A stretch of DNA of 64,000 nucleotides from Eledone cirrhosa (GCA_964016885.1 OZ024762.1:27714001-27778000), one strand, 5' to 3'; shown: positions 10,398 through 63,639, counted from the first letter of the stretch. The notes: generated by a model from the sequence alone, not told the origin. Made by a program: numbers and translations.

Positions 10398-10485
<88 letters not shown>

Positions 10486-33899: not shown

Positions 33900-36700
33900 C
33901 ATGGACAGTTATATGACCTCCCTTTCAGCCGAGAGACATACCAATACATATTCAAACATTGATACATATTCAAACATTGTGGGTCAACATTCATTACAGA
34001 ATTTAGAGTGGCAGTACACACTTCGAGATTACATTTATATTAATAGGTACAATCAAAAATCAAAGATATAGGTTAAAGTACAACATGAAGATAAGTGGTT
34101 ATATAGTGCAAATGTTATATGTGTGGCACGCATGTGCGTCTTGTTTATATAGTGTGGCAGAGAGATAGGTGTGGTAGAGGCACTTAGGTAGGTAAATAAG
34201 AGTGTTAGGTTGGTAGATCTGGTGGCAAAGTCTTTATATGATTGATATAGTCTGTGTGTGGAGAAATATTATAAGCATTAAAGATAGTGCAAGCATTAAA
34301 AGTGTTATAAGTATTGGAGATGCACAGCGCAGGGATGTCAAGTAATTCATGTACTTCGGTATTTTCATGGTCAAGGGAGTGTATATTTCGATTATATGCC
34401 TTTCACATAATCCACGACAATCCAGTTAGAGATCGTAGTCTGGTGTTCCTTAGTTCGATACAGGAGGTTGTTACGTTTCGAGAGACGCCATTGAATATCG
34501 GAAGTGTGTGTGTGGCTAAGGGGAGTTAATGCATGCGGGGAGGTAACTCTGGGGTTTCTATATCTAGCCATTAAAATGTGTCCCAATATAGACCCTAAAT
34601 TCTATGGTGAGGTGCACCTTCCAAGAGAGACTTTTAAAGCATAAAGTGTACTAACTATAGGGTAGTTTAACTAAATTATGCTGAAGGTGATCATATTATT
34701 ATTAAGGTGGATTAACCCATCTTAAGGTGCTACAAATGGAAATTATAGATGATGAGCGAGGATTCTAAATTAATGATCTCTGTGGTTGTAGTCTGCTCAT
34801 ATGACCAGGCGCGGTGATTGCAGGATTGCTTCAGGACCCAATGATCTCTGGTAAGATCTGGGTCATCGCTTGCTACATTGGATGTCGAAAGATAATCATC
34901 CCCAGGCAGGCCAAAGGTCAATCCGCAGTCCTCGCGACCCCTCTCTGACCGTCAGATCATCCATATACGTACAACCCGAACGGCAGTTGCATTGCATTCA
35001 CTCACTGCGCTCAGCAGCCTGGTCCTACTGGTCAACAGCGCTACTCGATTAAATCATTTTACATCTGTCTAAGGAAGGTGTTTCCTCTGCCCAACACCAT
35101 CCAACCGATCAATTCATGCTCAAATTACCCTTAGAGCGGTGTAGTGCCGTCCAGGTGGGTGGATGTTGTCACACCTGCCGTAGAGGTATAAATGGGTATT
35201 TTCCCTGCGAAGGGTTCCAGAGGGATGTCGTTGTTTGTGTTATAATGGATCAGCTAGTGTTGGGTATGTAGTATAGGGTGTGTCCCTGGTGTTTGATGCT
35301 AGATGTGGTGTTAGGGACACACCCTATACTACATACCCAACACTAGCTGATCCATTATAACACAAACAACGACATCCCTCTGGAACCCTTCGCAGGGAAA
35401 ATACCCATTTATACCTCTACGGCAGGTGTGACAACATCCACCCACCTGGACGGCACTACACCGCTCTAAGGGTAATTTGAGCATGAATTGATCGGTTGGA
35501 TGGTGTTGGGCAGAGGAAACACCTTCCTTAGACAGATGTAAAATGATTTAATCGAGTAGCGCTGTTGACCAGTAGGACCAGGCTGCTGAGCGCAGTGAGT
35601 GAATGCAATGCAACTGCCGTGCGGGTTGTACGTATATGGATGATCTGACGGTCAGAGAGGGGTCGCGAGGACTGCGGATTGACCTTTGGCCTGCCTGGGG
35701 ATGATTATCTTTCGACATCCAATGTAGCAAGCGATGACCCAGATCTTACCAGAGATCATTGGGTCCTGAAGCAATCCTGCAATCACCGCGCCTGGTCATA
35801 TGAGCAGACTACAACCACAGAGATCATTAATTTAGAATCCTCGCTCATCATCTATAATTTCCATTTGTAGCACCTTAAGATGGGTTAATCCACCTTAATA
35901 ATAATATGATCACCTTCAGCATAATTTAGTTAAACTACCCTATAGTTAGTACACTTTATGCTTTAAAAGTCTCTCTTGGAAGGTGCACCTCACCATAGAA
36001 TTTAGGGTCTATATTGGGACACATTTTAATGGCTAGATATAGAAACCCCAGAGTTACCTCCCCGCATGCATTAACTCCCCTTAGCCACACACACACTTCC
36101 GGTATTCAATGGCGTCTCTCGAAACGTAACAACCTCCTGTATCGAACTAAGGAACACCAGACTACGATCTCTAACTGGATTGTCGTGGATTATGTGAAAG
36201 GCATATAATCGAAATATACACTCCCTTGACCATGAAAATACCGAAGTACATGAATTACTTGACATCCCTGCGCTGTGCATCTCCAATACTTATAACACTT
36301 TTAATGCTTGCACTATCTTTAATGCTTATAATATTTCTCCACACACAGACTATATCAATCATATAAAGACTTTGCCACCAGATCTACCAACCTAACACTC
36401 TTATTTACCTACCTAAGTGCCTCTACCACACCTATCTCTCTGCCACACTATATAAACAAGACGCACATGCGTGCCACACATATAACATTTGCACTATATA
36501 ACCACTTATCTTCATGTTGTACTTTAACCTATATCTTTGATTTTTGATTGTACCTATTAATATAAATGTAATCTCGAAGTGTGTACTGCCACTCTAAATT
36601 CTGTAATGAATGTTGACCCACAATGTTTGAATATGTATCAATGTTTGAATATGTATTGGTATGTCTCTCGGCTGAAAGGGAGGTCATATAACTGTCCATG

Positions 36701-36766
36701 CATTAATAAATTGCTCCGAAGAATCCAAACCTCGGTTTGGAGGAAACAGCTGTAAGCACAATAATG
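36701..36766 (+). ncRNA. Type I hammerhead with CCGAAGA core, about 250 nt upstream of the ORF start, PLE C
   Basis: catta..attgct-CCGAAGA-a-tccaaac-ctcg-gtttgga-g-GAAA-cagctg-TA-agca-caat-aatg; palindromic stem III ACAGCTGT. Confidence 0.7.
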
Positions 36767-37007
36767 TTTTGAACAGTTCTTTGATTCTTATATTTCATAT
36801 AACTGCTCTGTAAATCATCTGATGTTTTTACATTGAGCTACTTAACTTACTGGTAATAAGGTAGTAATACATTACTGCCTACCACTATTTAGGGTGTGTG
36901 TAAAATACTTACAACTGCTTAAGGTTTTGTGTTTACATAACCATAAATAGTATAACTAATACTATTAACTGCTCCATATCGTTGAGCTGACATATAATAT
37001 TGCCAAT

Positions 37008-39467
37008 ATGCTAATCAAAGACCAACTCCCCATGTCAACCAAGAACATACCAATACCATCCAGGAATACATATGAGAAATTGCTGATCAACAGTGTAAAT
37101 TCATTTATCAATAGAGTGAGATGGAGGACATTCCATTATGATAGAAACAAATCTAACAACTTGAATAATACTAACAATTTTGACTCCTTCGGCTTTAAAA
37201 CCTTTAAAAGCCCCCCTCATAACACTCTACTTAACTCCTTTGAAAATGACCTAGTTAAACTAGTTAAGAACATTAAATACAATAAGCACCATATTAGAAG
37301 CAACACCTTCTTAAACAAACTTAACACTTCTATTAGTGGATTCAAAACTAGTAATAAAATTATTGTACACGCAGATAAAACTAATAACATATACAGCCTA
37401 GATTATATTACTTATAGAAAGTTTATATATAATGAACTACATAAAAGCTACAAAAAAACCACCTTGAAAAACTTAGAAGATATTAATGTAGAGGGTTATA
37501 ATATAGTGTCTAAACTAGGACTACAGAGGCATACACAACCTTTCACTCCGAACCCCCCTAGATTCTCTCTGAAGGACCATAAGGAGAACTTCATCAGCAA
37601 CCCCACGATAAGACTTATCTGCCCTTCCAAGTCCGACATTGGTATTATCAGCAAGAAGATTTTGGATAAAATCATCCCACAAATTAAACACAAGATACAC
37701 CTTAAACAATGGGGAAATACGGGTGAAGTAATTGAATGGTTTAAGGATATCAAGAATAATAAGAACAAAAAATTTATTCAATTTGATATCAATTCATACT
37801 ACACCTCTATTTCCCCTATCCTATTAAATAAGGCACTTATCATGGCCATGACCAATAGCGACCTGACTAGAGCCCAGGTTGATGTCATCCTTGCGGCCCG
37901 TAAAACCATAATCACCTTCGAGGACCAACTATGGACACGCAAGGATACGCACAACAACTTCGACATAACCATGGGATCTAGTGACTCGGCGCAGGTCACT
38001 GATTTGGTCGGCCTATACCTCCTCAATGAAATCCATAAAGACCTCCCTTACCTCAACGGTGGTTTGTACCGCGATGATGCACTTCTACTCATAGAATATA
38101 AAAAATTTAATATAGAAAGAACTAGAAAACAACTGCATAAGACATTCAAAAACTTTAACCTTAGTATCACCATGGACAAAAACACTAAAAATGTTAACTT
38201 CCTAGACGCCACACTATACCTAGACTCAAAAATATATACACCCTTCCATAAGCCTAATGAGAAACTTATTTACGTAGATACCAAGTCTAATCACCCTAGA
38301 TCAATATTAAACTCTATCTCTAAGGGGGTGTCCAATAGAATCTCTAGTCTGTCCTATGACGCAAACATATTTAGCAAAAACTCACAATATTACAATCAAG
38401 CATTAGCTAGCTCCGGCCATAATATAGAAATTGAGTTCCTACCTAAGAAAACACATAGCTACAACATCATCTCGCACAACATGTCCATGAGGAAATCTAA
38501 TAATAGGAATAGCAACCACAAGTACACCAAAGCGGAGGGTGCCACCGGAAGTAACCATTACCATGGAAACTACTGTGAGGCTTTAGGAGGAAGCAACACA
38601 CCAAACACTAAAAGCAAAAATAGAAGAAGAAATAATACATTTTTCAACCCTCCTTTCAACCTAAATGTCTCCACCAACATACCCAGGGCTTTCTTCTCAC
38701 TACTAGATAAAAACTTCCCTCTAGGACACAAGTACCACAACCTCTTAAACAAAAACACCATTAAAATCTCATACTCCACGACGCCTAACTTAGCATACCA
38801 CATAGCTAGCAGCAATAATAGTAAAATTAGTTCTTACTTCCAACAAACAAAATCGCAACGGGATGCAAACCCTCTAAATACCACTGTAGCAAGCAACAAT
38901 AGCAACGGCAGTAACAATAGAAATAACACTAGTATAAGTAATAACACCAGGGTTGTCAACCTGAACACCCAAAATCCTATATCCACCACACAGACTTCCG
39001 CATTGCATTATAACCAGCGGACTAACGCACAGAATAATTGTAACTGTAGAGCTAATAGAACCTGCCCTTTAGATAAAAAATGCCTAACCAAGGATGTCAT
39101 ATACTCATGCACAGTCACGACTAATAACTCTTCAGAAACCTACGTAGGCTCCACTTCTAACTGCTTCAAAATTAGATATAACTCGCACATCCACTCGTTC
39201 AAAAAGCACAGCCTAGCCAACTCCACCTCACTTTCTAGCTACATACACTATCTAACATCTAAAAATAAACCATACACACTCAAATGGGAAGTGATAGGCA
39301 GCGCGACCTCGTACAAACCACCTAATAAATTCTGTAACCTCTGTATACTAGAGACACACAATATTATCTTCTCCAACCGTAACCTACTTAACAAAAAATC
39401 TGAGGTGTTTGCAACTTGCCAGCACCGCCTCAGACATTCCTTCCAAAACTTTAAGCCCTATATATAG
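37008..39467 (+). CDS. PLE reverse transcriptase-GIY-YIG endonuclease, intact 819 aa
   Basis: Protein identical to 31133-33592. Confidence 0.95.
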   Translation: MLIKDQLPMSTKNIPIPSRNTYEKLLINSVNSFINRVRWRTFHYDRNKSNNLNNTNNFDSFGFKTFKSPPHNTLLNSFENDLVKLVKNIKYNKHHIRSNTFLNKLNTSISGFKTSNKIIVHADKTNNIYSLDYITYRKFIYNELHKSYKKTTLKNLEDINVEGYNIVSKLGLQRHTQPFTPNPPRFSLKDHKENFISNPTIRLICPSKSDIGIISKKILDKIIPQIKHKIHLKQWGNTGEVIEWFKDIKNNKNKKFIQFDINSYYTSISPILLNKALIMAMTNSDLTRAQVDVILAARKTIITFEDQLWTRKDTHNNFDITMGSSDSAQVTDLVGLYLLNEIHKDLPYLNGGLYRDDALLLIEYKKFNIERTRKQLHKTFKNFNLSITMDKNTKNVNFLDATLYLDSKIYTPFHKPNEKLIYVDTKSNHPRSILNSISKGVSNRISSLSYDANIFSKNSQYYNQALASSGHNIEIEFLPKKTHSYNIISHNMSMRKSNNRNSNHKYTKAEGATGSNHYHGNYCEALGGSNTPNTKSKNRRRNNTFFNPPFNLNVSTNIPRAFFSLLDKNFPLGHKYHNLLNKNTIKISYSTTPNLAYHIASSNNSKISSYFQQTKSQRDANPLNTTVASNNSNGSNNRNNTSISNNTRVVNLNTQNPISTTQTSALHYNQRTNAQNNCNCRANRTCPLDKKCLTKDVIYSCTVTTNNSSETYVGSTSNCFKIRYNSHIHSFKKHSLANSTSLSSYIHYLTSKNKPYTLKWEVIGSATSYKPPNKFCNLCILETHNIIFSNRNLLNKKSEVFATCQHRLRHSFQNFKPYI

Positions 39468-40899
39468 CAATGTCGGACTGGAACCTAACACCACATCTAG
39501 CATCAAACACCAGGGACACACCCTATACTACATACCCAACACTAGCTGATCCATTATAACACAAACAACGACATCCCTCTGGAACCCTTCGCAGGGAAAA
39601 TACCCATTTATACCTCTACGGCAGGTGTGACAACATCTACCCACCTGGACGGCACTACACCGCTCTAAGGGTAATTTGAGCATGAATTGATCGGTTGGAT
39701 GGTGTTGGGCAGAGGAAACACCTTCCTTAGACAGATGTAAAATGATTTAATCGAGTAGCGCTGTTGACCAGTAGGACCAGGCTGCTGAGCGCAGTGAGTG
39801 AATGCAATGCAACTGCCGTGCGGGTTGTACGTATATGGATGATCTGACGGTCAGAGAGGGGTCGCGAGGACTGCGGATTGACCTTTGGCCTGCCTGGGGA
39901 TGATTATCTTTCGACATCCAATGTAGCAAGCGATGACCCAGATCTTACCAGAGATCATTGGGTCCTGAAGCAATCCTGCAATCACCGCGCCTGGTCATAT
40001 GAGCAGACTACAACCACAGAGATCATTAATTTAGAATCCTCGCTCATCATCTATAATTTCCATTTGTAGCACCTTAAGATGGGTTAATCCACCTTAATAA
40101 TAATATGATCACCTTCAGCATAATTTAGTTAAACTACCCTATAGTTAGTACACTTTATGCTTTAAAAGTCTCTCTTGGAAGGTGCACCTCACCATAGAAT
40201 TTAGGGTCTATATTGGGACACATTTTAATGGCTAGATATAGAAACCCCAGAGTTACCTCCCCGCATGCATTAACTCCCCTTAGCCACACACACACTTCCG
40301 GTATTCAATGGCGTCTCTCGAAACGTAACAACCTCCTGTATCGAACTAAGGAACACCAGACTACGATCTCTAACTGGATTGTCGTGGATTATGTGAAAGG
40401 CATATAATCGAAATATACACTCCCTTGACCATGAAAATACCGAAGTACATGAATTACTTGACATCCCTGCGCTGTGCATCTCCAATACTTATAACACTTT
40501 TAATGCTTGCACTATCTTTAATGCTTATAATATTTCTCCACACACAGACTATATCAATCATATAAAGACTTTGCCACCAGATCTACCAACCTAACACTCT
40601 TATTTACCTACCTAAGTGCCTCTACCACACCTATCTCTCTGCCACACTATATAAACAAGACGCACATGCGTGCCACACATATAACATTTGCACTATATAA
40701 CCACTTATCTTCATGTTGTACTTTAACCTATATCTTTGATTTTTGATTGTACCTATTAATATAAATGTAATCTCGAAGTGTGTACTGCCACTCTAAATTC
40801 TGTAATGAATGTTGACCCACAATGTTTGAATATGTATCAATGTTTGAATATGTATTGGTATGTCTCTCGGCTGAAAGGGAGGTCATATAACTGTCCATG

Positions 40900-40965
40900 C
40901 ATTAATAAATTGCTCCGAAGAATCCAAACCTCGGTTTGGAGGAAACAGCTGTAAGCACAATAATG
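40900..40965 (+). ncRNA. Hammerhead (CCGAAGA core), PLE C
   Basis: Same motif as 36701-36766, +4199. Confidence 0.7.
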
Positions 40966-41206
40966 TTTTGAACAGTTCTTTGATTCTTATATTTCATATA
41001 ACTGCTCTGTAAATCATCTGATGTTTTTACATTGAGCTACTTAACTTACTGGTAATAAGGTAGTAATACATTACTGCCTACCACTATTTAGGGTGTGTGT
41101 AAAATACTTACAACTGCTTAAGGTTTTGTGTTTACATAACCATAAATAGTATAACTAATACTATTAACTGCTCCATATCGTTGAGCTGACATATAATATT
41201 GCCAAT

Positions 41207-43666
41207 ATGCTAATCAAAGACCAACTCCCCATGTCAACCAAGAACATACCAATACCATCCAGGAATACATATGAGAAATTGCTGATCAACAGTGTAAATT
41301 CATTTATCAATAGAGTGAGATGGAGGACATTCCATTATGATAGAAACAAATCTAACAACTTGAATAATACTAACAATTTTGACTCCTTCGGCTTTAAAAC
41401 CTTTAAAAGCCCCCCTCATAACACTCTACTTAACTCCTTTGAAAATGACCTAGTTAAACTAGTTAAGAACATTAAATACAATAAGCACCATATTAGAAGC
41501 AACACCTTCTTAAACAAACTTAACACTTCTATTAGTGGATTCAAAACTAGTAATAAAATTATTGTACACGCAGATAAAACTAATAACATATACAGCCTAG
41601 ATTATATTACTTATAGAAAGTTTATATATAATGAACTACATAAAAGCTACAAAAAAACCACCTTGAAAAACTTAGAAGATATTAATGTAGAGGGTTATAA
41701 TATAGTGTCTAAACTAGGACTACAGAGGCATACACAACCTTTCACTCCGAACCCCCCTAGATTCTCTCTGAAGGACCATAAGGAGAACTTCATCAGCAAC
41801 CCCACGATAAGACTTATCTGCCCTTCCAAGTCCGACATTGGTATTATCAGCAAGAAGATTTTGGATAAAATCATCCCACAAATTAAACACAAGATACACC
41901 TTAAACAATGGGGAAATACGGGTGAAGTAATTGAATGGTTTAAGGATATCAAGAATAATAAGAACAAAAAATTTATTCAATTTGATATCAATTCATACTA
42001 CACCTCTATTTCCCCTATCCTATTAAATAAGGCACTTATCATGGCCATGACCAATAGCGACCTGACTAGAGCCCAGGTTGATGTCATCCTTGCGGCCCGT
42101 AAAACCATAATCACCTTCGAGGACCAACTATGGACACGCAAGGATACGCACAACAACTTCGACATAACCATGGGATCTAGTGACTCGGCGCAGGTCACTG
42201 ATTTGGTCGGCCTATACCTCCTCAATGAAATCCATAAAGACCTCCCTTACCTCAACGGTGGTTTGTACCGCGATGATGCACTTCTACTCATAGAATATAA
42301 AAAATTTAATATAGAAAGAACTAGAAAACAACTGCATAAGACATTCAAAAACTTTAACCTTAGTATCACCATGGACAAAAACACTAAAAATGTTAACTTC
42401 CTAGACGCCACACTATACCTAGACTCAAAAATATATACACCCTTCCATAAGCCTAATGAGAAACTTATTTACGTAGATACCAAGTCTAATCACCCTAGAT
42501 CAATATTAAACTCTATCTCTAAGGGGGTGTCCAATAGAATCTCTAGTCTGTCCTATGACGCAAACATATTTAGCAAAAACTCACAATATTACAATCAAGC
42601 ATTAGCTAGCTCCGGCCATAATATAGAAATTGAGTTCCTACCTAAGAAAACACATAGCTACAACATCATCTCGCACAACATGTCCATGAGGAAATCTAAT
42701 AATAGGAATAGCAACCACAAGTACACCAAAGCGGAGGGTGCCACCGGAAGTAACCATTACCATGGAAACTACTGTGAGGCTTTAGGAGGAAGCAACACAC
42801 CAAACACTAAAAGCAAAAATAGAAGAAGAAATAATACATTTTTCAACCCTCCTTTCAACCTAAATGTCTCCACCAACATACCCAGGGCTTTCTTCTCACT
42901 ACTAGATAAAAACTTCCCTCTAGGACACAAGTACCACAACCTCTTAAACAAAAACACCATTAAAATCTCATACTCCACGACGCCTAACTTAGCATACCAC
43001 ATAGCTAGCAGCAATAATAGTAAAATTAGTTCTTACTTCCAACAAACAAAATCGCAACGGGATGCAAACCCTCTAAATACCACTGTAGCAAGCAACAATA
43101 GCAACGGCAGTAACAATAGAAATAACACTAGTATAAGTAATAACACCAGGGTTGTCAACCTGAACACCCAAAATCCTATATCCACCACACAGACTTCCGC
43201 ATTGCATTATAACCAGCGGACTAACGCACAGAATAATTGTAACTGTAGAGCTAATAGAACCTGCCCTTTAGATAAAAAATGCCTAACCAAGGATGTCATA
43301 TACTCATGCACAGTCACGACTAATAACTCTTCAGAAACCTACGTAGGCTCCACTTCTAACTGCTTCAAAATTAGATATAACTCGCACATCCACTCGTTCA
43401 AAAAGCACAGCCTAGCCAACTCCACCTCACTTTCTAGCTACATACACTATCTAACATCTAAAAATAAACCATACACACTCAAATGGGAAGTGATAGGCAG
43501 CGCGACCTCGTACAAACCACCTAATAAATTCTGTAACCTCTGTATACTAGAGACACACAATATTATCTTCTCCAACCGTAACCTACTTAACAAAAAATCT
43601 GAGGTGTTTGCAACTTGCCAGCACCGCCTCAGACATTCCTTCCAAAACTTTAAGCCCTATATATAG
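41207..43666 (+). CDS. PLE reverse transcriptase-GIY-YIG endonuclease, intact 819 aa
   Basis: Protein identical to 37008-39467. Confidence 0.95.
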   Translation: MLIKDQLPMSTKNIPIPSRNTYEKLLINSVNSFINRVRWRTFHYDRNKSNNLNNTNNFDSFGFKTFKSPPHNTLLNSFENDLVKLVKNIKYNKHHIRSNTFLNKLNTSISGFKTSNKIIVHADKTNNIYSLDYITYRKFIYNELHKSYKKTTLKNLEDINVEGYNIVSKLGLQRHTQPFTPNPPRFSLKDHKENFISNPTIRLICPSKSDIGIISKKILDKIIPQIKHKIHLKQWGNTGEVIEWFKDIKNNKNKKFIQFDINSYYTSISPILLNKALIMAMTNSDLTRAQVDVILAARKTIITFEDQLWTRKDTHNNFDITMGSSDSAQVTDLVGLYLLNEIHKDLPYLNGGLYRDDALLLIEYKKFNIERTRKQLHKTFKNFNLSITMDKNTKNVNFLDATLYLDSKIYTPFHKPNEKLIYVDTKSNHPRSILNSISKGVSNRISSLSYDANIFSKNSQYYNQALASSGHNIEIEFLPKKTHSYNIISHNMSMRKSNNRNSNHKYTKAEGATGSNHYHGNYCEALGGSNTPNTKSKNRRRNNTFFNPPFNLNVSTNIPRAFFSLLDKNFPLGHKYHNLLNKNTIKISYSTTPNLAYHIASSNNSKISSYFQQTKSQRDANPLNTTVASNNSNGSNNRNNTSISNNTRVVNLNTQNPISTTQTSALHYNQRTNAQNNCNCRANRTCPLDKKCLTKDVIYSCTVTTNNSSETYVGSTSNCFKIRYNSHIHSFKKHSLANSTSLSSYIHYLTSKNKPYTLKWEVIGSATSYKPPNKFCNLCILETHNIIFSNRNLLNKKSEVFATCQHRLRHSFQNFKPYI

Positions 43667-45098
43667 CAATGTCGGACTGGAACCTAACACCACATCTAGC
43701 ATCAAACACCAGGGACACACCCTATACTACATACCCAACACTAACTGATCCATTATAACACAAACAACGACATCCCTCTGGAACCCTTCGCAGGGAAAAT
43801 ACCCATTTATACCTCTACGGCAGGTGTGACAACATCCACCCACCTGGACGGCACTACACCGCTCTAAGGGTAATTTGAGCATGAATTGATCGGTTGGATG
43901 GTGTTGGGCAGAGGAAACACCTTCCTTAGACAGATGTAAAATGATTTAATCGAGTAGCGCTGTTGACCAGTAGGACCAGGCTGCTGAGCGCAGTGAGTGA
44001 ATGCAATGCAACTGCCGTGCGGGTTGTACGTATATGGATGATCTGACGGTCAGAGAGGGGTCGCGAGGACTGCGGATTGACCTTTGGCCTGCCTGGGGAT
44101 GATTATCTTTCGACATCCAATGTAGCAAGCGATGACCCAGATCTTACCAGAGATCATTGGGTCCTGAAGCAATCCTGCAATCACCGCGCCTGGTCATATG
44201 AGCAGACTACAACCACAGAGATCATTAATTTAGAATCCTCGCTCATCATCTATAATTTCCATTTGTAGCACCTTAAGATGGGTTAATCCACCTTAATAAT
44301 AATATGATCACCTTCAGCATAATTTAGTTAAACTACCCTATAGTTAGTACACTTTATGCTTTAAAAGTCTCTCTTGGAAGGTGCACCTCACCATAGAATT
44401 TAGGGTCTATATTGGGACACATTTTAATGGCTAGATATAGAAACCCCAGAGTTACCTCCCCGCATGCATTAACTCCCCTTAGCCACACACACACTTCCGG
44501 TATTCAATGGCGTCTCTCGAAACGTAACAACCTCCTGTATCGAACTAAGGAACACCAGACTACGATCTCTAACTGGATTGTCGTGGATTATGTGAAAGGC
44601 ATATAATCGAAATATACACTCCCTTGACCATGAAAATACCGAAGTACATGAATTACTTGACATCCCTGCGCTGTGCATCTCCAATACTTATAACACTTTT
44701 AATGCTTGCACTATCTTTAATGCTTATAATATTTCTCCACACACAGACTATATCAATCATATAAAGACTTTGCCACCAGATCTACCAACCTAACACTCTT
44801 ATTTACCTACCTAAGTGCCTCTACCACACCTATCTCTCTGCCACACTATATAAACAAGACGCACATGCGTGCCACACATATAACATTTGCACTATATAAC
44901 CACTTATCTTCATGTTGTACTTTAACCTATATCTTTGATTTTTGATTGTACCTATTAATATAAATGTAATCTCGAAGTGTGTACTGCCACTCTAAATTCT
45001 GTAATGAATGTTGACCCACAATGTTTGAATATGTATCAATGTTTGAATATGTATTGGTATGTCTCTCGGCTGAAAGGGAGGTCATATAACTGTCCATG

Positions 45099-45164
45099 CA
45101 TTAATAAATTGCTCCGAAGAATCCAAACCTCGGTTTGGAGGAAACAGCTGTAAGCACAATAATG
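45099..45164 (+). ncRNA. Hammerhead (CCGAAGA core), PLE C
   Basis: Same motif as 36701-36766, +8398. Confidence 0.7.
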
Positions 45165-45380
45165 TTTTGAACAGTTCTTTGATTCTTATATTTCATATAA
45201 CTGCTCTGTAAATCATCTGATGTTTTTACATTGAGCTACTTAACTTACTGGTAATAAGGTAGTAATACATTACTGCCTACCACTATTTAGGGTGTGTGTA
45301 AAATACTTACAACTGCTTAAGGTTTTGTGTTTACATAACCATAAATAGTATAACTAATACTATATATATATATATATATG

Positions 45381-45608: not shown

Positions 45609-45626
45609 TATATACATATATATATA

Positions 45627-46183
<557 letters not shown>

Positions 46184-46251: not shown

Positions 46252-46258
46252 TATATAT

Positions 46259-46704
46259 ACGATATTAAATAAATGGAAACTATATTTATAAAACCATATT
46301 TATTTCATTATATATATTTCAGGGATATCATATTAAAAATATGGTATGCCTTCATCAGACAAAATACAATATAAACAGTCTTATAAATAGATAGATTTGA
46401 CATACCTTACACTTCAACTTCCATTTAAAAAGTTGATTTTTGACTTTTTAAATGGAAGTTGAAGTGTAAGGTATGTCAAATCTATCTATTTATAAGACTG
46501 TTTATATTGTATTTTGTCTGATGAAGGCATACCATATTTTTAATATGATATCCCTGAAATATATATAATGAAATAAATATGGTTTTATAAATATAGTTTC
46601 CATTTATTTAATATCGTAAATATACTCCAAATACTTGTTGAGTGCTTTTATATCAGTTATAAATATTTACTCGTTGTAACCCAACAATTTAAATAAAACT
46701 TTGC
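46259..46704. mobile_element. Palindromic pLTR-only insertion related to PLE family A, with hammerheads at 46301-46366 (-) and 46510-46575 (+)
   Basis: Arms 46259-46433/46443-46617; tattttgt-CTGATGA-aggcataccatat..atatgatatccct-GAAA-tatata-TA-atgaaata. Confidence 0.8.
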
Positions 46705-46960: not shown

Positions 46961-46967
46961 AAATATA

Positions 46968-47345
46968 ATATATAAGAACAAAAGATGGTTAAAAGAGTTC
47001 CATGTATTTTATTATGCGCATTTCAAAAACAAATATCATCATGCAATAATATTTGTGTTTTCATGAAGGTTAAAAAACACTTGTGGATAGTTCAGTTTTA
47101 AAACAACTCAACTATCCACAAGTGTTTTTAACCTTCATATCATGTCCTCCTGTTTTATCTGATGAAAACACAAATATTATTGCATGATGATATTTGTTTT
47201 TGAAATGCGCATAATAAAATACATGGAACTCTTTTAACCATCTTTTGTTCTTATATATTATGTATACTCCAGTCCTACAAACTGTAGAGTGCTTCTTATC
47301 CGATATCTGCATTGCTTTATTGTACTACAATAAAACTCACCTCCT
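46968..47345. mobile_element. Small inverted-arm insertion carrying a hammerhead
   Basis: 46968-47064 is the reverse complement of about 47162-47258; 47061-47092 is the reverse complement of about 47110-47138; flanked by (TA)n. Confidence 0.75.
47151..47221 (+). ncRNA. Type I hammerhead ribozyme
   Basis: tgttttat-CTGATGA-aaacacaaatatt..gatatttgttttt-GAAA-tgcgca-TA-ataaaata; palindromic stem III ATGCGCAT. Confidence 0.85.
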
Positions 47346-47367
47346 ACATATATAAAATATATATATA

Positions 47368-48620
47368 TATATGTCCCAAATGCAAAGTATGGGTGCATAA
47401 AAGATGTAGTGGGATCACAGGTAAGCTAACTAAGAACATAGATTTTACATGTGGCCGGTGCTCTGGTGCAATAAGTAGCAGCAAGTGCCCACAAAATACT
47501 AGCTCCTTCAACTGCGCAGAGGGTTCTATAGAAATAGTGGACAGCTTCCGTTACCTGGGTGACAAAATCAGCAGTGGGGGAGGGTGCTCTGAAAGTACAG
47601 TAGCTAGAGTCAGAACTGGATGGAAAAAGTTCAGAGAGCTTATACCACTATTAGCCGCTAGAGGGTTCTCCCTAAAAATGAAAGGCAGATTATACGATGC
47701 CTGCATACGAACAGCAATGCTGCATGGCAGTGAGACCTGGGCATTGTGTGCAGAGGATATACGCAGACTAGAGAGGAACGAAGCTTGCATGCTCCGCTGG
47801 ATGTGCAATAGTAATATACGTGAACGGCAAAGCATAAACGAACTAAGGAAAAAAAAATTAGAAATAAGAGGGATCAGATGTTGTTTACTCGAGAGAAGGC
47901 TACGTTGGTATGGACACGTGATGCGCATGAAAGTCGATAGCTGTATAACAAAGTGCAGGGCAATAAAGATAGACGGTAGCCACGAAGTAGGCAGACCCAG
48001 AAAAACATGGGACGAGCTGATAAATTGCGACCTCACACGCTTACACCTCTCCAAGACGATGTCACTGGACCGAGACCTTTGGCGGTACTCAGTAATAGAG
48101 AAGACCCGCCTTACCTAAATACAAAGTAAAAACCTACTACAGTCAGTAGGCATCTCTATCAAAACACACCCCCGTCCCACCACCTCCACCCCATCCACAC
48201 CGCCCCTTTCAATGTAAAGTTATGTTGGTCCCACAACATCCAGGCCGAAACAAATGAGATCGTGTAGGTGTCACGACAAAAAACACACAGTCCACGCTGT
48301 AAATGTGGCCGTGTAGGCAACACGGTAAAAACCTCCCAGCCCCACACTGTAAATGTGGTTGGTGTTAGGAAGGGCATCCAGCTGTAGAAAACCGGCCAGA
48401 CAGTCCACCCTGTAATGTGGCCGTGTAGGCAACACGGTAAAAACCTCCCAGCCCCACACTGTAAATGTGGTTGGTGTTAGGAAGGGCATCCAACTGTAGA
48501 AAACCCGCCAGACAGTCCCATGCGAGCAAGACAACCACTCTTGCCTCAAGTGGGAAAACCCCCGTCCAAACCCATGCCAGCGTGGAACACGGACGCTAAA
48601 CCTGATGATGATGATGATGA
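47368..48620 (+). mobile_element. 5'-truncated RTE-clade LINE (C-terminal ORF to 48118, tandem-repeated 3' UTR, (GAT)n tail)
   Basis: CPKCKVWVHKRC..CGRC, FRYLG, LHGSETW, RRLRWYGHVMRM, GRPRKTW; about 120-bp UTR repeats; GATGATGAT at 48604-48620. Confidence 0.9.
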
Positions 48621-49262: not shown

Positions 49263-49790
49263 CTACCTGGAGTTGCGACCAATAGATAGTATTAGCAATT
49301 GGAAAGACCAACGGAAACATTGTTCCCTCAGTCCGATTTGACGAAAGTCGATCGTTCCTTTTAATATATATAAAATATGTATATAAAATATATATATATA
49401 TAAAATATGTATATAAAATATATATATATATATAAAATATATATATATAATATATATATATATAAAATATGTATATAAAATATATATATATATAAAATAT
49501 ATATGTAGAGATAGATATATATATAAAATATATATATATATATAGATATAGTGTAAGGTTAATATATCTGAGGGTACAATGTGCCCCCAGAAATACAGGG
49601 TTGTCTATGATTCAAGGTGGTTCGATGGTAATAATTTGATATACCAGAACTTAATATGAAGATAAGCAGAACAAGTAAATTACTTGTTCTGCTTATCTTC
49701 ATATATATAGATATATATATAAAATATATATATATAGATATATATATAAAATATATATATATATATACAATATATATTATATATATATAT

Positions 49791-51184
49791 ATATTTCGTT
49801 TCTGAATTTGTTTAGCAAGATTCTTTATCTGAAATCGTGTGTTGAAACCAATATTGTTATACTTTGGGAGGGTCATGTTGCCAATAAGAAACACACGCAC
49901 CAGTTGCTTTCACTTCAATTTATTATATATTTATAAATTTATAAATTTATAAATCTATAAATTTCTGGTTGGTTGGTTGGTTCCACAACCAGATAGTTGT
50001 TTATATATATAGTCATAGTTCTTTCGTCACACACTCTGTGACCTCTTCAGTGACTGGGGATTCCTTTCTTTGTTTCTGTGCCTCTCCTTTGTTCTGTCCT
50101 ACGCCATTTTGTTTCTATGTGTGTGTTGTGTGCTCCGTCTGCGTATGCGCCACATCCGGGTGTCTGTGTGTGTTTATGTTCATTTATTTATTTGTTTATT
50201 TACATGTTACTGGTTGGTTGTTTGTTCTATGTGTGTGTGTGTTTTCATTTTGTCCTTAATTGTAAGTTGTGATGTTGCTGTTCCACTCATATTTTCTATT
50301 TAATTTTGGTTGTAATTCTTTTATGTTTATTGCCTCCGTAATTTGTCTTTTCTGTGTGTAGATTCTATTTTTATTTCTATGTTCTCTAATTTACCCTTGT
50401 GTTCTATCTTAGCATGTTGGTAGAGTACAGATGATTCTTTATTATCTTGAAGGTCTCGCCAGTGTTCATTTATCCGTTCCCCTACACTACGAGCTGTCTC
50501 ACCTATGTACTTTATATTTTTGTCTCTACATTGTCCTTCAGTACATCTTATGCTATACACTACATTTCTAGTTTTACAGTTAATATGGGGGCTTATTTTA
50601 CAGGTTATACATTTCTTATCTATACATGAGGGTCTTTGAAAAGGGTATGTCTTGCTAATAAGTGTTTTTACGGAGGTACCTGGTCTTTCTACTATCTTAA
50701 TATTGAGTTTATGTTTATTTAGGGCCCTTCTAAATTTGTAAGCTAATTCACCTCTAGGGGTTGTATTGATGAACATTACACTCTGGTATTTATTGCTATC
50801 ATACCATGAGTTTATTCTATTAGCCTTGTTCCTAGTTCTTTGTAAATAAACAAATAAATAAATGAACATAAACACACACAGACACCCGGATGTGGCGCAT
50901 GCGCAGACGGAGCACACAACACACACACAGAAACAAAATGGCGTAGGACAGAACAAAGGAGAGGCACAGAAAGAAAGAAAGGAATCCCCAGTCACTGAAG
51001 AGGTCACAGAGTGTGTGACGAAAGAACTATGACTATATATAAACAACTATCTGGTTGTGGAACCAACCAACCAACCAGAAATTTATAGATTTATAAATTT
51101 ATAAATTTATAAATATATAATAAATTGAAGTGAAAGCAACTGGTGCTTGTGTTTCTTATTGGCAACATGACCCTCCCAAAGTAT

Positions 51185-51190
<6 letters not shown>
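49791..51190. mobile_element. PLE family D (Naiad-like) 3' fragment on minus strand 49791-50840 with inverted pLTR arm 50841-51190
   Basis: Minus ORF part 50327-50840: SVMFINTTPRGELA..KIVERPG..CIDKKCITC..C..RNVVYSIRC..C..YIGETARSVGERINEH; arms are reverse complements. Confidence 0.8.
50990..51034 (+). ncRNA. Minimal type I hammerhead (PLE D; inverted copy at 50011-50055)
   Basis: agtca-CTGAAGA-g-gtcaca-gagtg-tgtgac-GAAA-gaac-TA-tgact. Confidence 0.8.
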
Positions 51191-51248
<58 letters not shown>

Positions 51249-51307
51249 TATAATATATATATAATATATATATATATATAATATATATATAATATATATA
51301 TATATAT

Positions 51308-51340
<33 letters not shown>

Positions 51341-51367
51341 AAATATATATATATATATATATATAAA

Positions 51368-51399
<32 letters not shown>

Positions 51400-51432
51400 T
51401 ATATATATATATAAAATATATATATATCAAAA

Positions 51433-51480
<48 letters not shown>

Positions 51481-51485
<5 letters not shown>

Positions 51486-54400
51486 ATAAATGCTCTGAAA
51501 TAGCGATATATATATGAATATAGACATAGAATATTCGAAAATATTCTGTATGTTTATAATAAACATTTTGAAGACCTAATCGCTATAGAATAGAATACGT
51601 CACGTATTACAATTAGATTCTCGATAAAAGCAAGGGAAGTAATCTACGCGTTTCATTCTTGTTAGAATTCATCAGGACTACATATCCAGTGCTTTTATCG
51701 AGAATGACACAGCTAGAGACTTATAGAATACTTAGCTGTGTACAGGAACTGGTTTGAAAGAGCGGTTGCCGGTCCGGCAGAAATTAGAAATTGGAATAAA
51801 TGCTCTGAAATAGCGATATATATATGAATATAGACATAGAATATTCGAAAATATTCTGTATGTTTATAATAAACATTTTGAAGACCTAATCGCTATAGAA
51901 TAGAATACGTCACGTATTACAATTAGATTCTCGATAAAAGCAAGGGAAGTAATCTACGCGTTTCATTCTTGTTAGAATTCATCAGGACTACATATCCAGT
52001 GCTTTTATCGAGAATGACACAGCTAGAGACTTATAGAATACTTAGCTGTGTACAGGAACTGGTTTGAAAGAGCGGTTGCCGGTCCGGCAGAAATTAGAAA
52101 TTGGAATAAATGCTCTGAAATAGCGATATATATATGAATATAGACATAGAATATTCGAAAATATTCTGTATGTTTATAATAAACATTTTGAAGACCTAAT
52201 CGCTATAGAATAGAATACGTCACGTATTACAATTAGATTCTCGATAAAAGCAAGGGAAGTAATCTACGCGTTTCATTCTTGTTAGAATTCATCAGGACTA
52301 CATATCCAGTGCTTTTATCGAGAATGACACAGCTAGAGACTTATAGAATACTTAGCTGTGTACAGGAACTGGTTTGAAAGAGCGGTTGCCGGTCCGGCAG
52401 AAATTAGAAATTGGAATAAATGCTCTGAAATAGCGATATATATATGAATATAGACATAGAATATTCGAAAATATTCTGTATGTTTATAATAAACATTTTG
52501 AAGACCTAATCGCTATAGAATAGAATACGTCACGTATTACAATTAGATTCTCGATAAAAGCAAGGGAAGTAATCTACGCGTTTCATTCTTGTTAGAATTC
52601 ATCAGGACTACATATCCAGTGCTTTTATCGAGAATGACACAGCTAGAGACTTATAGAATACTTAGCTGTGTACAGGAACTGGTTTGAAAGAGCGGTTGCC
52701 GGTCCGGCAGAAATTAGAAATTGGAATAAATGCTCTGAAATAGCGATATATATATGAATATAGACATAGAATATTCGAAAATATTCTGTATGTTTATAAT
52801 AAACATTTTGAAGACCTAATCGCTATAGAATAGAATACGTCACGTATTACAATTAGATTCTCGATAAAAGCAAGGGAAGTAATCTACGCGTTTCATTCTT
52901 GTTAGAATTCATCAGGACTACATATCCAGTGCTTTTATCGAGAATGACACAGCTAGAGACTTATAGAATACTTAGCTGTGTACAGGAACTGGTTTGAAAG
53001 AGCGGTTGCCGGTCCGGCAGAAATTAGAAATTAGAAATTAGAAATTGGAATAAAAGCACTGGATATGTAGTCCTGATGAATTCTAACAAGAATGAAACGC
53101 GTAGATTACTTCCCTTGCTTTTATCGAGAATCTAATTGTAATACGTGACGTATTCTATTCTATAGCGATTAGGTCTTCAAAATGTTTATTATAAACATAC
53201 AGAATATTTTCGAATATTCTATGTCTATATTCATATATATATCGCTATTTCAGAGCATTTATTCCAATTTCTAATTTCTGCCGGACCGGCAACCGCTCTT
53301 TCAAACCAGTTCCTGTACACAGCTAAGTATTCTATAAGTCTCTAGCTGTGTCATTCTCGATAAAAGCACTGGATATGTAGTCCTGATGAATTCTAACAAG
53401 AATGAAACGCGTAGATTACTTCCCTTGCTTTTATCGAGAATCTAATTGTAATACGTGACGTATTCTATTCTATAGCGATTAGGTCTTCAAAATGTTTATT
53501 ATAAACATACAGAATATTTTCGAATATTCTATGTCTATATTCATATATATATCGCTATTTCAGAGCATTTATTCCAATTTCTAATTTCTGCCGGACCGGC
53601 AACCGCTCTTTCAAACCAGTTCCTGTACACAGCTAAGTATTCTATAAGTCTCTAGCTGTGTCATTCTCGATAAAAGCACTGGATATGTAGTCCTGATGAA
53701 TTCTAACAAGAATGAAACGCGTAGATTACTTCCCTTGCTTTTATCGAGAATCTAATTGTAATACGTGACGTATTCTATTCTATAGCGATTAGGTCTTCAA
53801 AATGTTTATTATAAACATACAGAATATTTTCGAATATTCTATGTCTATATTCATATATATATCGCTATTTCAGAGCATTTATTCCAATTTCTAATTTCTG
53901 CCGGACCGGCAACCGCTCTTTCAAACCAGTTCCTGTACACAGCTAAGTATTCTATAAGTCTCTAGCTGTGTCATTCTCGATAAAAGCACTGGATATGTAG
54001 TCCTGATGAATTCTAACAAGAATGAAACGCGTAGATTACTTCCCTTGCTTTTATCGAGAATCTAATTGTAATACGTGACGTATTCTATTCTATAGCGATT
54101 AGGTCTTCAAAATGTTTATTATAAACATACAGAATATTTTCGAATATTCTATGTCTATATTCATATATATATCGCTATTTCAGAGCATTTATTCCAATTT
54201 CTAATTTCTGCCGGACCGGCAACCGCTCTTTCAAACCAGTTCCTGTACACAGCTAAGTATTCTATAAGTCTCTAGCTGTGTCATTCTCGATAAAAGCACT
54301 GGATATGTAGTCCTGATGAATTCTAACAAGAATGAAACGCGTAGATTACTTCCCTTGCTTTTATCGAGAATCTAATTGTAATACGTGACGTATTCTATTC

Positions 54401-55720
54401 TATAGCGATTAGGTCTTCAAAATGTTTATTATAAACATACAGAATATTTTCGAATATTCTATGTCTATATTCATATATATATCGCTATTTCAGAGCATTT
54501 ATTCCAATTTCTAATTTCTGCCGGACCGGCAACCGCTCTTTCAAACCAGTTCCTGTACACAGCTAAGTATTCTATAAGTCTCTAGCTGTGTCATTCTCGA
54601 TAAAAGCACTGGATATGTAGTCCTGATGAATTCTAACAAGAATGAAACGCGTAGATTACTTCCCTTGCTTTTATCGAGAATCTAATTGTAATACGTGACG
54701 TATTCTATTCTATAGCGATTAGGTCTTCAAAATGTTTATTATAAACATACAGAATATTTTCGAATATTCTATGTCTATATTCATATATATATCGCTATTT
54801 CAGAGCATTTATTCCAATTTCTAATTTCTGCCGGACCGGCAACCGCTCTTTCAAACCAGTTCCTGTACACAGCTAAGTATTCTATAAGTCTCTAGCTGTG
54901 TCATTCTCGATAAAAGCACTGGATATGTAGTCCTGATGAATTCTAACAAGAATGAAACGCGTAGATTACTTCCCTTGCTTTTATCGAGAATCTAATTGTA
55001 ATACGTGACGTATTCTATTCTATAGCGATTAGGTCTTCAAAATGTTTATTATAAACATACAGAATATTTTCGAATATTCTATGTCTATATTCATATATAT
55101 ATCGCTATTTCAGAGCATTTATTCCAATTTCTAATTTCTGCCGGACCGGCAACCGCTCTTTCAAACCAGTTCCTGTACACAGCTAAGTATTCTATAAGTC
55201 TCTAGCTGTGTCATTCTCGATAAAAGCACTGGATATGTAGTCCTGATGAATTCTAACAAGAATGAAACGCGTAGATTACTTCCCTTGCTTTTATCGAGAA
55301 TCTAATTGTAATACGTGACGTATTCTATTCTATAGCGATTAGGTCTTCAAAATGTTTATTATAAACATACAGAATATTTTCGAATATTCTATGTCTATAT
55401 TCATATATATATCGCTATTTCAGAGCATTTATTCCAATTTCTAATTTCTGCCGGACCGGCAACCGCTCTTTCAAACCAGTTCCTGTACACAGCTAAGTAT
55501 TCTATAAGTCTCTAGCTGTGTCATTCTCGATAAAAGCACTGGATATGTAGTCCTGATGAATTCTAACAAGAATGAAACGCGTAGATTACTTCCCTTGCTT
55601 TTATCGAGAATCTAATTGTAATACGTGACGTATTCTATTCTATAGCGATTAGGTCTTCAAAATGTTTATTATAAACATACAGAATATTTTCGAATATTCT
55701 ATGTCTATATTCATATATAT
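51481..55720. mobile_element. Retrozyme-like tandem array, 310-bp unit: 5 units minus (51481-53030) and about 8.6 units plus (53051-55720), in (TA)n
   Basis: Unit starts at 51481, 51791, 52101, 52411, 52721, then 53051, 53361, ... 55531; no ORF; one hammerhead per unit (14 in total). Confidence 0.92.
53067..53109 (+). ncRNA. Minimal type I hammerhead of the 310-bp unit (first plus copy; repeats every 310 bp)
   Basis: gtagtc-CTGATGA-attct-aaca-agaat-GAAA-cgcg-TA-gattac; in full units stem I is extended by ttctcgataaaagca/tgcttttatcgagaa. Confidence 0.92.
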
Positions 55721-55758
55721 ATATATATATATATATATCAAAAATATATATATAATAT

Positions 55759-55809
<51 letters not shown>

Positions 55810-55849
55810 TATAATATATATATATTTATATATATATATATATAAATAT

Positions 55850-56380
55850 ATGAATAAAGTTAGTCCTTCATCAGTGATCTTCCAACCATCATTGGTATTT
55901 CATCGCTTTAAAGACCATATATCTCCGGTTGGTGCGAGCAACAGCTAAAAAAAGTCGTTGGGACACGTAAATAAAGGGGACACGAGATTGTAAACAAACA
56001 AAGATGGTGAAGCAACGAAAAGTGAGGAAGAAGGAGTCAAGTCCCAAATTTCCATGAATATAAGTTCGGTGAAATCGTGAACGAGAGAGAATAAAGACCA
56101 TCAAACCTGGTTGGAATGTGAGCAAGGAAGGAATTCCGTACAGGTCTAACGGGAGGAAGAAGGGATCTAGTCTGTGAATTCGGTGAACGTAAGTTCTGTG
56201 AAATCGTAGACGAGATATATATATATATATATCCAAAATTAAGTTAATCAAAATTATGGGTGTCATGCCAGAAAGACATGCGCCATATCACCCGCAAAAT
56301 AAGCTCTAAGATTCTAACGAATAGGTCCGAGCACTTTATAATGATTAATCATGTTTATTTATATGTTAATCAAATTCTAG
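55850..56380 (-). repeat. Second copy of the 21023-21255 repeat family with an internal sub-repeat
   Basis: Homology as above; AAGTTC.GTGAAATCGT..ACGAGA repeated at about 56062 and about 56192. Confidence 0.65.
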
Positions 56381-57292
<912 letters not shown>

Positions 57293-57705
57293 ATTTCGTT
57301 TCTGAATTTGTTTAGCAAGATTCTTTATCTGAAAACGTGTGTTGAAACCGATATTGTTATATTTTGGGAGGGTCATGTTGCCAATAAGAAATACACGCAC
57401 CGGTCGCCTTCACTTCAATTTATTATATTAAATTTATAAATTTCCGGTTGGTTGATTGGTTCCACAACCAGATGGTTGTTTATATATTGTCAAAGTTCTT
57501 TCGTCGCACATTCTGAGACCTCTTCAAAAACAAGATGGCGTAGGACAGAACAAATGAAGGCGCAAAACACAAAGAAAAGAATCCCCAGTCACTGAAGAGG
57601 TCAGAGAATGTGTGCCGAAAGAACTTTGACAATATATAAACAACCATCTGGTTGTGGAACCAACCAACCAACCGGAAATTTATAAATTCCTAAATTTATA
57701 AATTT
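57293..57705. mobile_element. Diverged pLTR-only inverted-arm copy of PLE D with degenerate hammerhead at 57587-57630 (+)
   Basis: 57293-57525 matches 49791-50048; 57526-57705 matches 50930-51110. Confidence 0.8.
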
Positions 57706-57740
57706 ATTATAATATATAAAATATATATATATAAAATATA

Positions 57741-62326: not shown

Positions 62327-63492
62327 TCAAACATATGATGACCCATTGTCCACGTGATAAGGTGGGGGTAATCTATAAGGCGGAGGTGGCTGAGTATAGG
62401 TATTGCTGTATGATGCATTCTCATTACCATAAATTTCCTCATCTGATGGACTCTCTTGTTCGTCTAATGTTGATGGCTGGTATGGTAGGCCTATCTGGGG
62501 TGAAAATTTACGACGTGCACTTGATTTAGGCTTACCATCTCCTGGAAGGATTACTGCCCGTTTCGAACGATTTGATTTGTCCTTTTGTGCCTGTTCCCTA
62601 TGGAACATAACTGGGTCTTGGTCCTCAAATGAATGCCGTGGTTCCTTCGGCTTGCTCTTTTCTTTTTTCTGTTTCCGACTGCAGATCAGTAAAATAATGA
62701 CGACGATAAAGATAGCTATTGCTACGGCAATAACAGTCGGTATTATAGCCTCTGCCCAGGGGTCAACCTGTACCACACCTCCAGTTCCGCTTGCTTCCGA
62801 CACATCTTGGCATGCACCTTTCATTTGGAACTCAACGTTTGTAACTTTGTACTTTGGGGACATGTATTTACTGAACTTGGGGTTAATGTAACCCTTGTGG
62901 TCAACGACCTTCTGTTTCATTTCATGTATGGTCTCATTGTCGCAGTGGTCAGTTGCTATACTGTTGTTGGTCCATGTTACAATCAACGAACCTGGTCGAG
63001 CGTCAATCACTGTGATGGAGTTTGCATCTCTGTCATCGAAATAAGACGATAATTTTTTAATGAGGTTCTTAAATTTTCTACGATCGTTTAGAAACCTTCT
63101 ACCATTCACATCGAACCTCATAATAAATTCTTGTGTTGGTACTGTGTCCGTATCACTGGCATTTATGTAAATCTGGATTATATCCTGCGCTATTTTGCCA
63201 CCCTGATCTATAGCATTTATAGTTAACTCAATTGGACTCTCCTTCATATCTTGTGGCAATGGTAGGCCAGAAAATGTTTGCTTTCCGTCATCAAACTGCA
63301 CCCAAGAGTAAGAGTATGTCGGAGGTCTATAGGAATCCCACTTGAATGCAACATCAAGAGTTAGGTCCCTTGTGGAACCGTCTTCAAGATCATTGAACGT
63401 ATTTTCGGGTATCTGGAATTCAAACATTTTCCCAGCGAAAGCATATATCTTTCCGATTGGATTGATAACATCAGGAGCCATATTTGGTGGTT
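62327..63492 (-). CDS. DAG1: Dystroglycan, terminal coding exon (cadherin-like Ig domain, SEA module, TM helix, cytoplasmic tail)
   Basis: FEFQIPENTFNDLEDGSTRDL..WVQFD..GLP; SEA cleavage-like PGSLIVTWTNNS; TM IIPTVIAVAIAIFIVVIILLIC; basic juxtamembrane; C-terminal PPPPYRLPPPY; splice acceptor tttctcattgcAG immediately before 63492. Confidence 0.9.
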
Positions 63493-63639
63493 CTGCAATG
63501 AGAAATCAGATATATAGATAGATATACAAACATGCATACATAGATATATATGCATACATGATGGCTGCAAACTCTGCTAAAATTATTGCAATCGCTTGTC
63601 AGATTATAGAGTTTGGTGCACTTTTAGGCTATGGCCAGC

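Follow-up and report, generated by a model that had tools for sequence, protein, structure and literature searches.

Two-armed, tailed arrays of a hammerhead retrozyme in Eledone cirrhosa point to Penelope-type twin priming on a small RNA

In published descriptions, metazoan retrozymes lacking long terminal repeats (non-LTR retrozymes) are non-coding tandem repeats with units of 150-450 bp, one type I hammerhead ribozyme per unit, a GC content under 50%, a structured monomer and a habit of co-occurring with Penelope-like elements. For coral, mussel and axolotl retrozymes, RNA circles have been shown, and it has been proposed that reverse transcription (RT) turns these into tandem cDNA, the candidate sources of the enzyme being Penelope-like elements (PMC7229834). 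We describe here an array at positions 51480-55722 of a 64,000-nt stretch of the E. cirrhosa genome (GCA_964016885.1 OZ024762.1:27714001-27778000; the whole stretch is called the window below). The array shares the features of unit, ribozyme, base composition, fold and neighbourhood named first and, by every feature that sequence can test, is one insertion of a non-LTR retrozyme. Circular RNA and cleavage have been demonstrated for the described retrozymes, whereas the 310-bp family reported here is known from DNA sequence alone.

How such arrays arise is contested between two published models, one in which RT on circular RNA yields ready-made tandem cDNA (PMC7229834) and one, discussed in a 2026 preprint, in which a Penelope terminal repeat grows locally in the manner of a satellite (bioRxiv 10.64898/2026.07.22.740005). 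In that preprint the link between retrozymes and Penelope terminal repeats rests on homology. Both models name a Penelope-like partner on the basis of shared ribozymes, co-occurrence or homology and not of insertion signatures. Penelope-like insertions are incomplete tandems to which a 5'-truncated copy is joined in inverse orientation, and one of their ends bears a tail of 30-40 bp (PMC8557442). In vitro, both strands of AT-rich DNA are cut and extended by a purified Penelope protein that is predicted to dimerize; it starts RT at two adjacent internal sites, the spacing of which equals the genomic tail (PMC11167929).

The 310-bp family carries a Penelope-type tail and inverted arm on nearly every copy. 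Its arrays resemble Penelope-like insertions (the Poseidon element PAc, PMC11167929, and the Hydra clade, PMC8557442) in combining a tandem with an inverted, 5'-truncated copy, in bearing a tail on one end, in an RT start downstream of the hammerhead and in AT-rich or (TA)n targets; they differ from them in having no open reading frame (ORF), in reaching up to 20 units per arm and in being non-autonomous. Array layout and haplotype pattern together very probably tie the family to Penelope-type twin priming. The retrozyme was likely moved by a Penelope-like element whose RT-endonuclease copied one monomer RNA, probably a circle, and we lean, with some reserve, towards reading more than 1,200 arrays as records of a Penelope dimer that primed from both ends of a break on one 310-nt circle and copied it round and round. 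Unlike the arrays of described retrozymes, those reported here have two arms, whose 3' ends are fixed at two sites and lie in (TA)n. Word searches of the main texts of PMC7229834 and of the 2026 preprint, supplements aside, found no inverted arms or tail for retrozymes. Although the retrozyme class is known, two-armed, tailed insertions of its members were not found described in the literature searched, outside of which lay subscription papers and the supplements of these two sources.

The array consists of two inverted tandem arrays of one 310-bp unit, in which we count as position 1 the base that follows the predicted GUA cut (window position 53104). The left arm (51480-53054, minus strand) has 5.0 units and ends outward, at its 3' end, at unit position 165 (the long end); the right arm (53050-55722, plus strand) has 8.6 units and ends outward at unit position 130-139 (the short end), where it merges into a TA tract. 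A prediction made earlier from the sequence (the original prediction) had placed these limits at 51481-55720, which we correct by one base on the left and two on the right, but its count of about 13.6 identical units without ORFs holds: there are no mismatches between full units, and the longest ATG frame in the unit is 30 codons. It had also called the array head-to-head; the arms are indeed inverted, in the precise sense that their 5' ends are joined and their 3' ends face outward. The 5'-to-5' junction (53037-53054) comprises two extra copies of a 7-nt repeat, a slippage of 14 nt, and 5 nt of microhomology at 53050-53054. Unit positions 131-165 are present at the left end (51480-51514, minus strand) and absent at the right end, and thus form a tail comparable to that described in PMC11167929. 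The array is flanked by (TA)n target tracts at 51189-51479 and 55723-55851, and a 14-nt interrupted-TA motif that occurs only at 51424 and 55735 may be a target duplication, although the match extends uncleanly.

As predicted, the array carries fourteen hammerheads: CTGATGA cores number nine on the plus strand and five on the minus strand, and every unit's core is present (14/14). The GC content of the unit is 0.34. No ORF for an RT with a GIY-YIG domain was found in the unit or in 70 fetched arrays, so the repeat is not an autonomous Penelope-like element. The fetched arrays are pure repeats of the unit without LTR organisation, no separate search for a primer-binding site or polypurine tract having been made, and a crude scan for RNA polymerase III A and B boxes found none on the sense strand of the unit. 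The array sits in the TA tract that ends a truncated Penelope-like insertion at 49690-51190, which has long and short ends and a GIY-YIG remnant (50327-51046), and is thus an insertion nested into TA tracts; a second truncated insertion of this kind lies at 57300-57720.

The array is real and is one member of a young, dispersed repeat family. We counted the family by sequence patterns across the 3.0-Gb genome, with the same patterns read backwards as controls, all of which gave zero matches. The exact 43-nt hammerhead of the window copy has 2,528 genomic matches, and an invariant 30-mer of the unit has 16,447 exact matches, equivalent to about 5 Mb. Arm ends against (TA)n number 1,224 at unit position 165-167 and 1,282 at 130-139. 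These more than 1,200 dispersed, two-armed copies with fixed ends bear out the proposal that a retrozyme inserted recently and was copied in from both ends of the target, and they exclude the case that would have spoken against it, a single locus with gradual divergence. It had also been expected that dispersed arrays would differ in their start phases; the arrays are dispersed, but their 3' ends are fixed at two sites and only the phase of the 5' junction is random.

We analyzed 70 stretches in detail: the window, nine loci chosen by the hammerhead alone and 60 chosen by the long end. The hammerhead-chosen loci were two-armed in eight cases of nine, and among the 60 long-end loci an inverted second arm was found in 53, while four were single-armed, two ran off the stretch and one met an assembly gap. 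All 62 arm junctions were 5'-to-5' and there were no 3'-to-3' arrays; one locus, L041, has an extra internal rearrangement. Fifty-five of the 56 complete arrays end at 138-139 on one arm and at 165-170 on the other, so that the tail, present on one end only, measures 26-35 nt (26-40 if the 170 end is counted), although overlap with TA blurs its exact length. At least four TA repeats stand at both flanks in 49 of the 56. The exception, L034, has a non-TA target with a 12-bp target duplication; duplications are clear in L034 and L073, and there are four candidates among 57 arrays. Arms reach up to 20 units, and the long-end arm is the longer one in 32 of the 56 complete arrays.

Microhomology of at least 2 nt was found at 24 of 35 insert-free junctions between arms (versus 18.5% by chance), and inserts of 1-39 nt at 20 of 55. 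At L031 the two arms overlap by 16 nt, and these nucleotides are the helix I extension of the RNA itself, which is what annealing of complementary cDNA ends would give. At L056 (838-1109), 273 bp of unrelated GC-rich DNA are captured between the arms.

If both arms are copied from one RNA they should share its haplotype. Among 51 arrays in which each arm exceeds one unit, both arms had the same haplotype in 48, compared with 11% for random pairs among 22 haplotypes; of the three arrays that differ, one does so through an alignment artefact. In a census of 60 arrays with at least three units (603 units), 12 private variants were fixed in all units of one array (0.2 per array), 10 of them seen in both arms; private here means unique among the 60 sampled arrays. 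A new variant can come to be fixed throughout both arms only if a single monomer served as template for the whole array. Variants confined to a single unit numbered 109 (0.18 per unit), and the rate of private variants is thus close to the existing per-unit variation, although this match is rough and relative to the sample. Intermediate variant calls numbered 21, of which several are artefacts of indel placement. No single-unit variant at all was found in 21 of the 60 arrays, and longer arrays carry fewer such variants per unit (rho −0.29, p 0.02), a trend opposite to that expected of arrays growing slowly in place. From these sequences we conclude that the arrays were mostly born long and that both arms derive from one template per insertion.

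Was this template a circle? Junction phases are uniform (p 0.56): of 124, two fall no more than 5 nt from the cut site, against four expected. In 615 passes over the cut site there is no single-unit change and no scar. A 1-nt insertion near the cut site in six arrays was considered as a ligation scar and rejected, as it lies after position 2. Clean passage over the cut site, together with the lack of a pile-up of arm ends there, favors a covalent circle over a cut monomer. A circular monomer is therefore the template that we think likely, and the earlier suggestion of rolling-circle RT of a circular RNA is favored by haplotype and junction data.

The arrays can be accommodated by the following sequence of events. 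Arrays would be transcribed and, as in other retrozymes, their hammerheads would pair as dimers through the palindromic helix III and release 310-nt monomers that would be ligated into circles. A Penelope-type protein would cut both strands of a (TA)n tract, the target being evident from the sequence and the enzyme presumed. The two DNA 3' ends would then prime RT on one and the same RNA, each at its own fixed internal site, the two sites being 26-35 nt apart; of this step the two fixed ends and the same-haplotype arms are what we observe. Each RT would make a varying number of rounds and cross the ligated cut site in doing so, to which the observed arm lengths and absence of scars correspond. 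Finally, the two cDNA 3' ends would meet and join by microhomology or short inserts, each templating the other's second strand in an order that we can only suppose, and the result would be a 5'-to-5' two-armed array with a tail on one side; here the observed part is the junctions.

The first step calls for a ribozyme that functions as a dimer. The first hammerhead of the right arm (53067-53109, plus strand), which recurs every 310 bp, has helix I at 53067-53072/53104-53109, the core at 53073-53079, helix II at 53080-53093 and the palindromic helix III at 53097-53102. CUGAUGA, GAAA, the palindrome ACGCGT and GUA are present in each unit as originally noted, and cleavage is predicted to occur after A53103. 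In the fold, helix I measures 6 bp and is continued, beyond an internal loop, by an extension of 15 bp; helix II has 4-5 bp, and helix III has 1-2 bp within ACGCGT. The extension (53353-53367 paired with 53427-53441, plus strand), also anticipated earlier, appears in the minimum-free-energy (MFE) fold and would hold the ends of the cut monomer together. When two copies are cofolded, ACGCGT is predicted to pair between them. A 6-bp helix I, a helix II of 4-5 bp and a palindromic helix III of 1-2 bp define the canonical metazoan type I form, whereas the minimal hammerhead (min-HHR) of Penelope-like elements has a helix II of 7-8 bp, a helix I of 4-5 bp and no helix III (PMC4209133). By these definitions the modeled ribozyme is the canonical animal form that works as a dimer, and of the earlier label 'canonical minimal' only the first word applies. 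The weak palindromic helix III is like that of axolotl HHR_Amex1, and in most arrays helix II has a U.U at its base, as in HHR_Amex2. Rfam gave no match at gathering score; below it, HH9 matches the hammerhead (23 of 52 bits, E 0.0033).

The monomer folds more stably than shuffled controls whether treated as circular (z −4.9, 0/200 shuffles) or linear (z −4.7, 0/100), and its fold is 59% paired and branched, not rod-like. Two of the hairpins originally proposed for it need correction: the TGCCGG hairpin exists but as 5 bp with a 3-nt loop, and the ATAGCGAT/ATCGCTAT pair, which is part of the family-majority fold, is absent from the MFE fold of the window copy.

Older sister families have a period of about 320 bp, are 66-70% identical and give 1,619 matches to one motif. 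Their arms and ends are as in the 310-bp family, and the stretch between the two ends is almost unchanged. We aligned the window copy with 16 hammerhead segments, drawn from 29 listed, of its own and the sister families (17 copies). In this alignment 94.6% of cells are paired. Both partners have changed in 17 of the 27 pairs, and at the tertiary 3-8 pair eight copies have C-G and nine U-A. The swap from a C3-G8 to a U3-A8 core is known from schistosome Penelope hammerheads (PMC4209133). As judged from the aligned copies, the older sister families keep the hammerhead by compensatory changes and the ribozyme is constrained. Older sister retrozymes (L131-L160, L080, L091 and L100) have U3-A8 cores and a longer palindromic helix III; at L151 and L152, also of a sister family, the repeat is shortened to 163 bp and has no hammerhead.

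A possible source of the enzyme lies in the window itself. A young autonomous Hydra-type Penelope-like element, a separate insertion at 29600-45363, has a period of 4,199 bp, 3.75 units, two arms and an unusually long tail of 164 nt, and includes intact 832-codon frames at 31133-33631 (minus strand), 36969-39467 and 41168-43666 (both plus strand). Pfam has no family for this frame, which we assigned by its motifs RWR, DKT, CxCX5C, CxxC and CxH and by its Atlas neighbours; these motifs mark the (TA)n-targeting Hydra clade (PMC8557442). At least 144 copies of the element are 99-100% identical, and its two fixed ends, 164 nt apart, have 459 and 619 matches. Intact frames and near-identical copies suggest that an active enzyme of a suitable kind is present, and the element is a candidate enzyme donor for the 310-bp retrozyme. 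The element also bears a hammerhead-like motif with core CCGAAGA and a palindromic helix III. That the retrozyme and the autonomous Penelope-like elements of the window have a two-armed layout in common had been missed before.

Several observations weigh against parts of this reading. All 69 fetched arrays besides that of the window come from the first 162 Mb of one contig (C1). The tail of the Hydra-type element is 164 nt, versus 26-35 nt in the 310-bp arrays, and no terminal repeat homologous to the unit was found on Penelope elements among the listed window matches or in 30 sister-family loci. The matches listed between the unit and the rest of the window are TA-rich ones, a weak hit to a 467-bp hammerhead repeat described below and a 14-nt match; Penelope frames occur in five of the 30 sister loci, and in none of these, as far as inspected, does the unit serve as a terminal repeat attached to them. 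With regard to the ribozyme, cleavage was seen in one of nine frog retrozyme dimers (bioRxiv 10.64898/2026.07.22.740005), and for in vitro insertion by the Penelope protein hammerhead cleavage was dispensable, uncut RNA being the main substrate (PMC11167929). The covariation rests on few related subfamilies, so that its events are not independent, and on a structure named by the analyst. Within the young family, none of 26 fixed substitutions falls in the 11 core positions, where about one is expected, pair-breaking substitutions are 6/26 versus 39/91 (p 0.07) and the energy test fails to separate the strands (p 0.02 for plus, 0.04 for minus); the signal of selection on the hammerhead inside this family is thus weak. 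Lastly, some arrays are not uniform. L090 has two outer units of another haplotype and L065 one variant in nine of 13 units, L072 has one variant mirrored in both arms, and the long arms of L051, L055, L056 and L078 show variants that recur in two or three units. Template switches, multimer templates or later local duplication therefore occur in a minority of arrays. In both L090 and L065 the haplotype switches part-way along an arm.

The in vitro use of uncut RNA raises the first of the alternatives, in which the same Penelope-type twin priming takes place on an uncut linear multimer read through the parent array and not on a circle. Such a template would equally give same-haplotype arms and no scar, and the variant of L072, mirrored at the same unit in both arms, is what it would produce. 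It could not, however, carry a new variant into all units of the two arms, yet 12/60 arrays have private variants of this kind; single-unit variants of the parent should often be mirrored between arms, but only one to three cases occur in 51 arrays, and arms of up to 20 units would shorten with each generation. Although the first two arguments are softened by the definition of private relative to 60 arrays and by the few variants that very young parents would carry, we regard a linear multimer as unlikely.

A monomer template need not be closed either. RT might recopy a cut, unligated monomer by jumping between its ends from 5' to 3', or the second arm might be a fold-back on the first cDNA. 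Either would give a monomer bottleneck and same-haplotype arms; helix I and its extension are predicted to place the monomer ends side by side, and the junction microhomology fits a fold-back too. Template jumps by the RTs of R2 and group II introns usually gain or lose bases, however, and the 615 scarless passes and the lack of an arm-end pile-up at the cut site show nothing of the kind. A fold-back leaves the fixed stop of the second arm unexplained and sits poorly with the finding that either arm can be the longer (the long-end arm in 32/56). Together we hold these two variants to be quite improbable.

Growth in place of short Penelope-derived insertions as minisatellites by unequal exchange, a model discussed in bioRxiv 10.64898/2026.07.22.740005, finds some echo in the recurring variants of L051, L055, L056 and L078, which indicate some local duplication. 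It is nevertheless a very remote prospect as a general account, given that variants are mostly confined to single units (109 versus 21 intermediate calls, several of them artefacts), that long arrays are the least varied, that inverted arms have private variants in common and that outer ends are fixed.

Although perfect unit identity (100%) and a palindromic layout are typical of DNA processes such as extrachromosomal circles or of fold-back artefacts in long-read assembly, an origin of this kind is scarcely credible in view of the two end sites, which recur in more than 1,200 places, of arms that differ in length, haplotypes peculiar to each array, the target duplication in L034, the same layout in sister families of 66-70% identity, covariation of RNA type and contigs of run X1 (which may be the same sample) that show loose ends in TA at 139 and 170.

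Runs X4, X5 and X6, labelled as other organisms, each contain one closed 310-nt contig at a depth of 18-34 that differs by 0-1 base from the window unit. The simplest reading of these contigs is cross-sample contamination from a very high-copy repeat; as evidence of a circle we rejected them, since a tandem DNA repeat collapses to the same form.

Newt satellite 2 and the schistosome hammerhead satellites are comparable hammerhead repeats of about 330 bp, described as cleaving as dimers (PMC7229834, PMC4209133), but insertion ends and orientation are resolved here; their sequences appear unrelated to the 310-bp unit, no direct comparison having been made. Opposite-strand pairs of hammerheads have been traced to truncated Penelope copies (PMC4209133). 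The array had also been called viroid-like. Hammerhead viroids and viroid-like RNAs resemble the repeat in being small, non-coding, structured, hammerhead-bearing and likely circular; a viroid, though, is an infectious RNA that replicates with no DNA stage and has ribozymes in both polarities. The term is inapt, as the 310-bp repeat is genome-encoded, bears its hammerhead in one polarity only, has a branched fold and shows no sign of RNA-to-RNA replication.

If the proposed mechanism is right, the family provides direct genomic evidence that animal retrozymes spread by rolling-circle RT, and the same mechanism may explain the tandem, inverted and tailed structure of Penelope-like insertions generally. 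It would also indicate that nature has an RT able to turn a small circle into kilobases of concatemer at a defined target. For a direct in vitro test, the family offers a substrate of 310 nt, two start sites that are already mapped, and candidate enzymes that are intact.

A second non-coding hammerhead family is present in the window at 21593-23098 and 45624-45974, with a 467-bp unit, two arms in (TA)n and a 69-nt tail. Its helix II loop, UAACAA, is the one found in the 310-bp unit, and the two units also have an AT-rich motif of loose similarity in common. Further hammerhead-like motifs with a long helix II and a palindromic helix III are found at 10040-10845, 18328-19112, 46252-46700 and 46965-47261, in short inverted or truncated elements that end in (TA)n.

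Elsewhere in the window are frames at 5685-7127 (minus strand), 27133-29182 (minus strand) and 47288-48118 (plus strand) that we take, from their motifs, to be helicase-like, of Helitron/PIF1 type, and LINE-type RT frames. The LINE-type RT frame at 27133-28515 (minus strand) matches RVT_1 in Pfam. A host gene exon at 62327-63505 (minus strand) matches dystroglycan (Pfam DAG1, E 3e-20).

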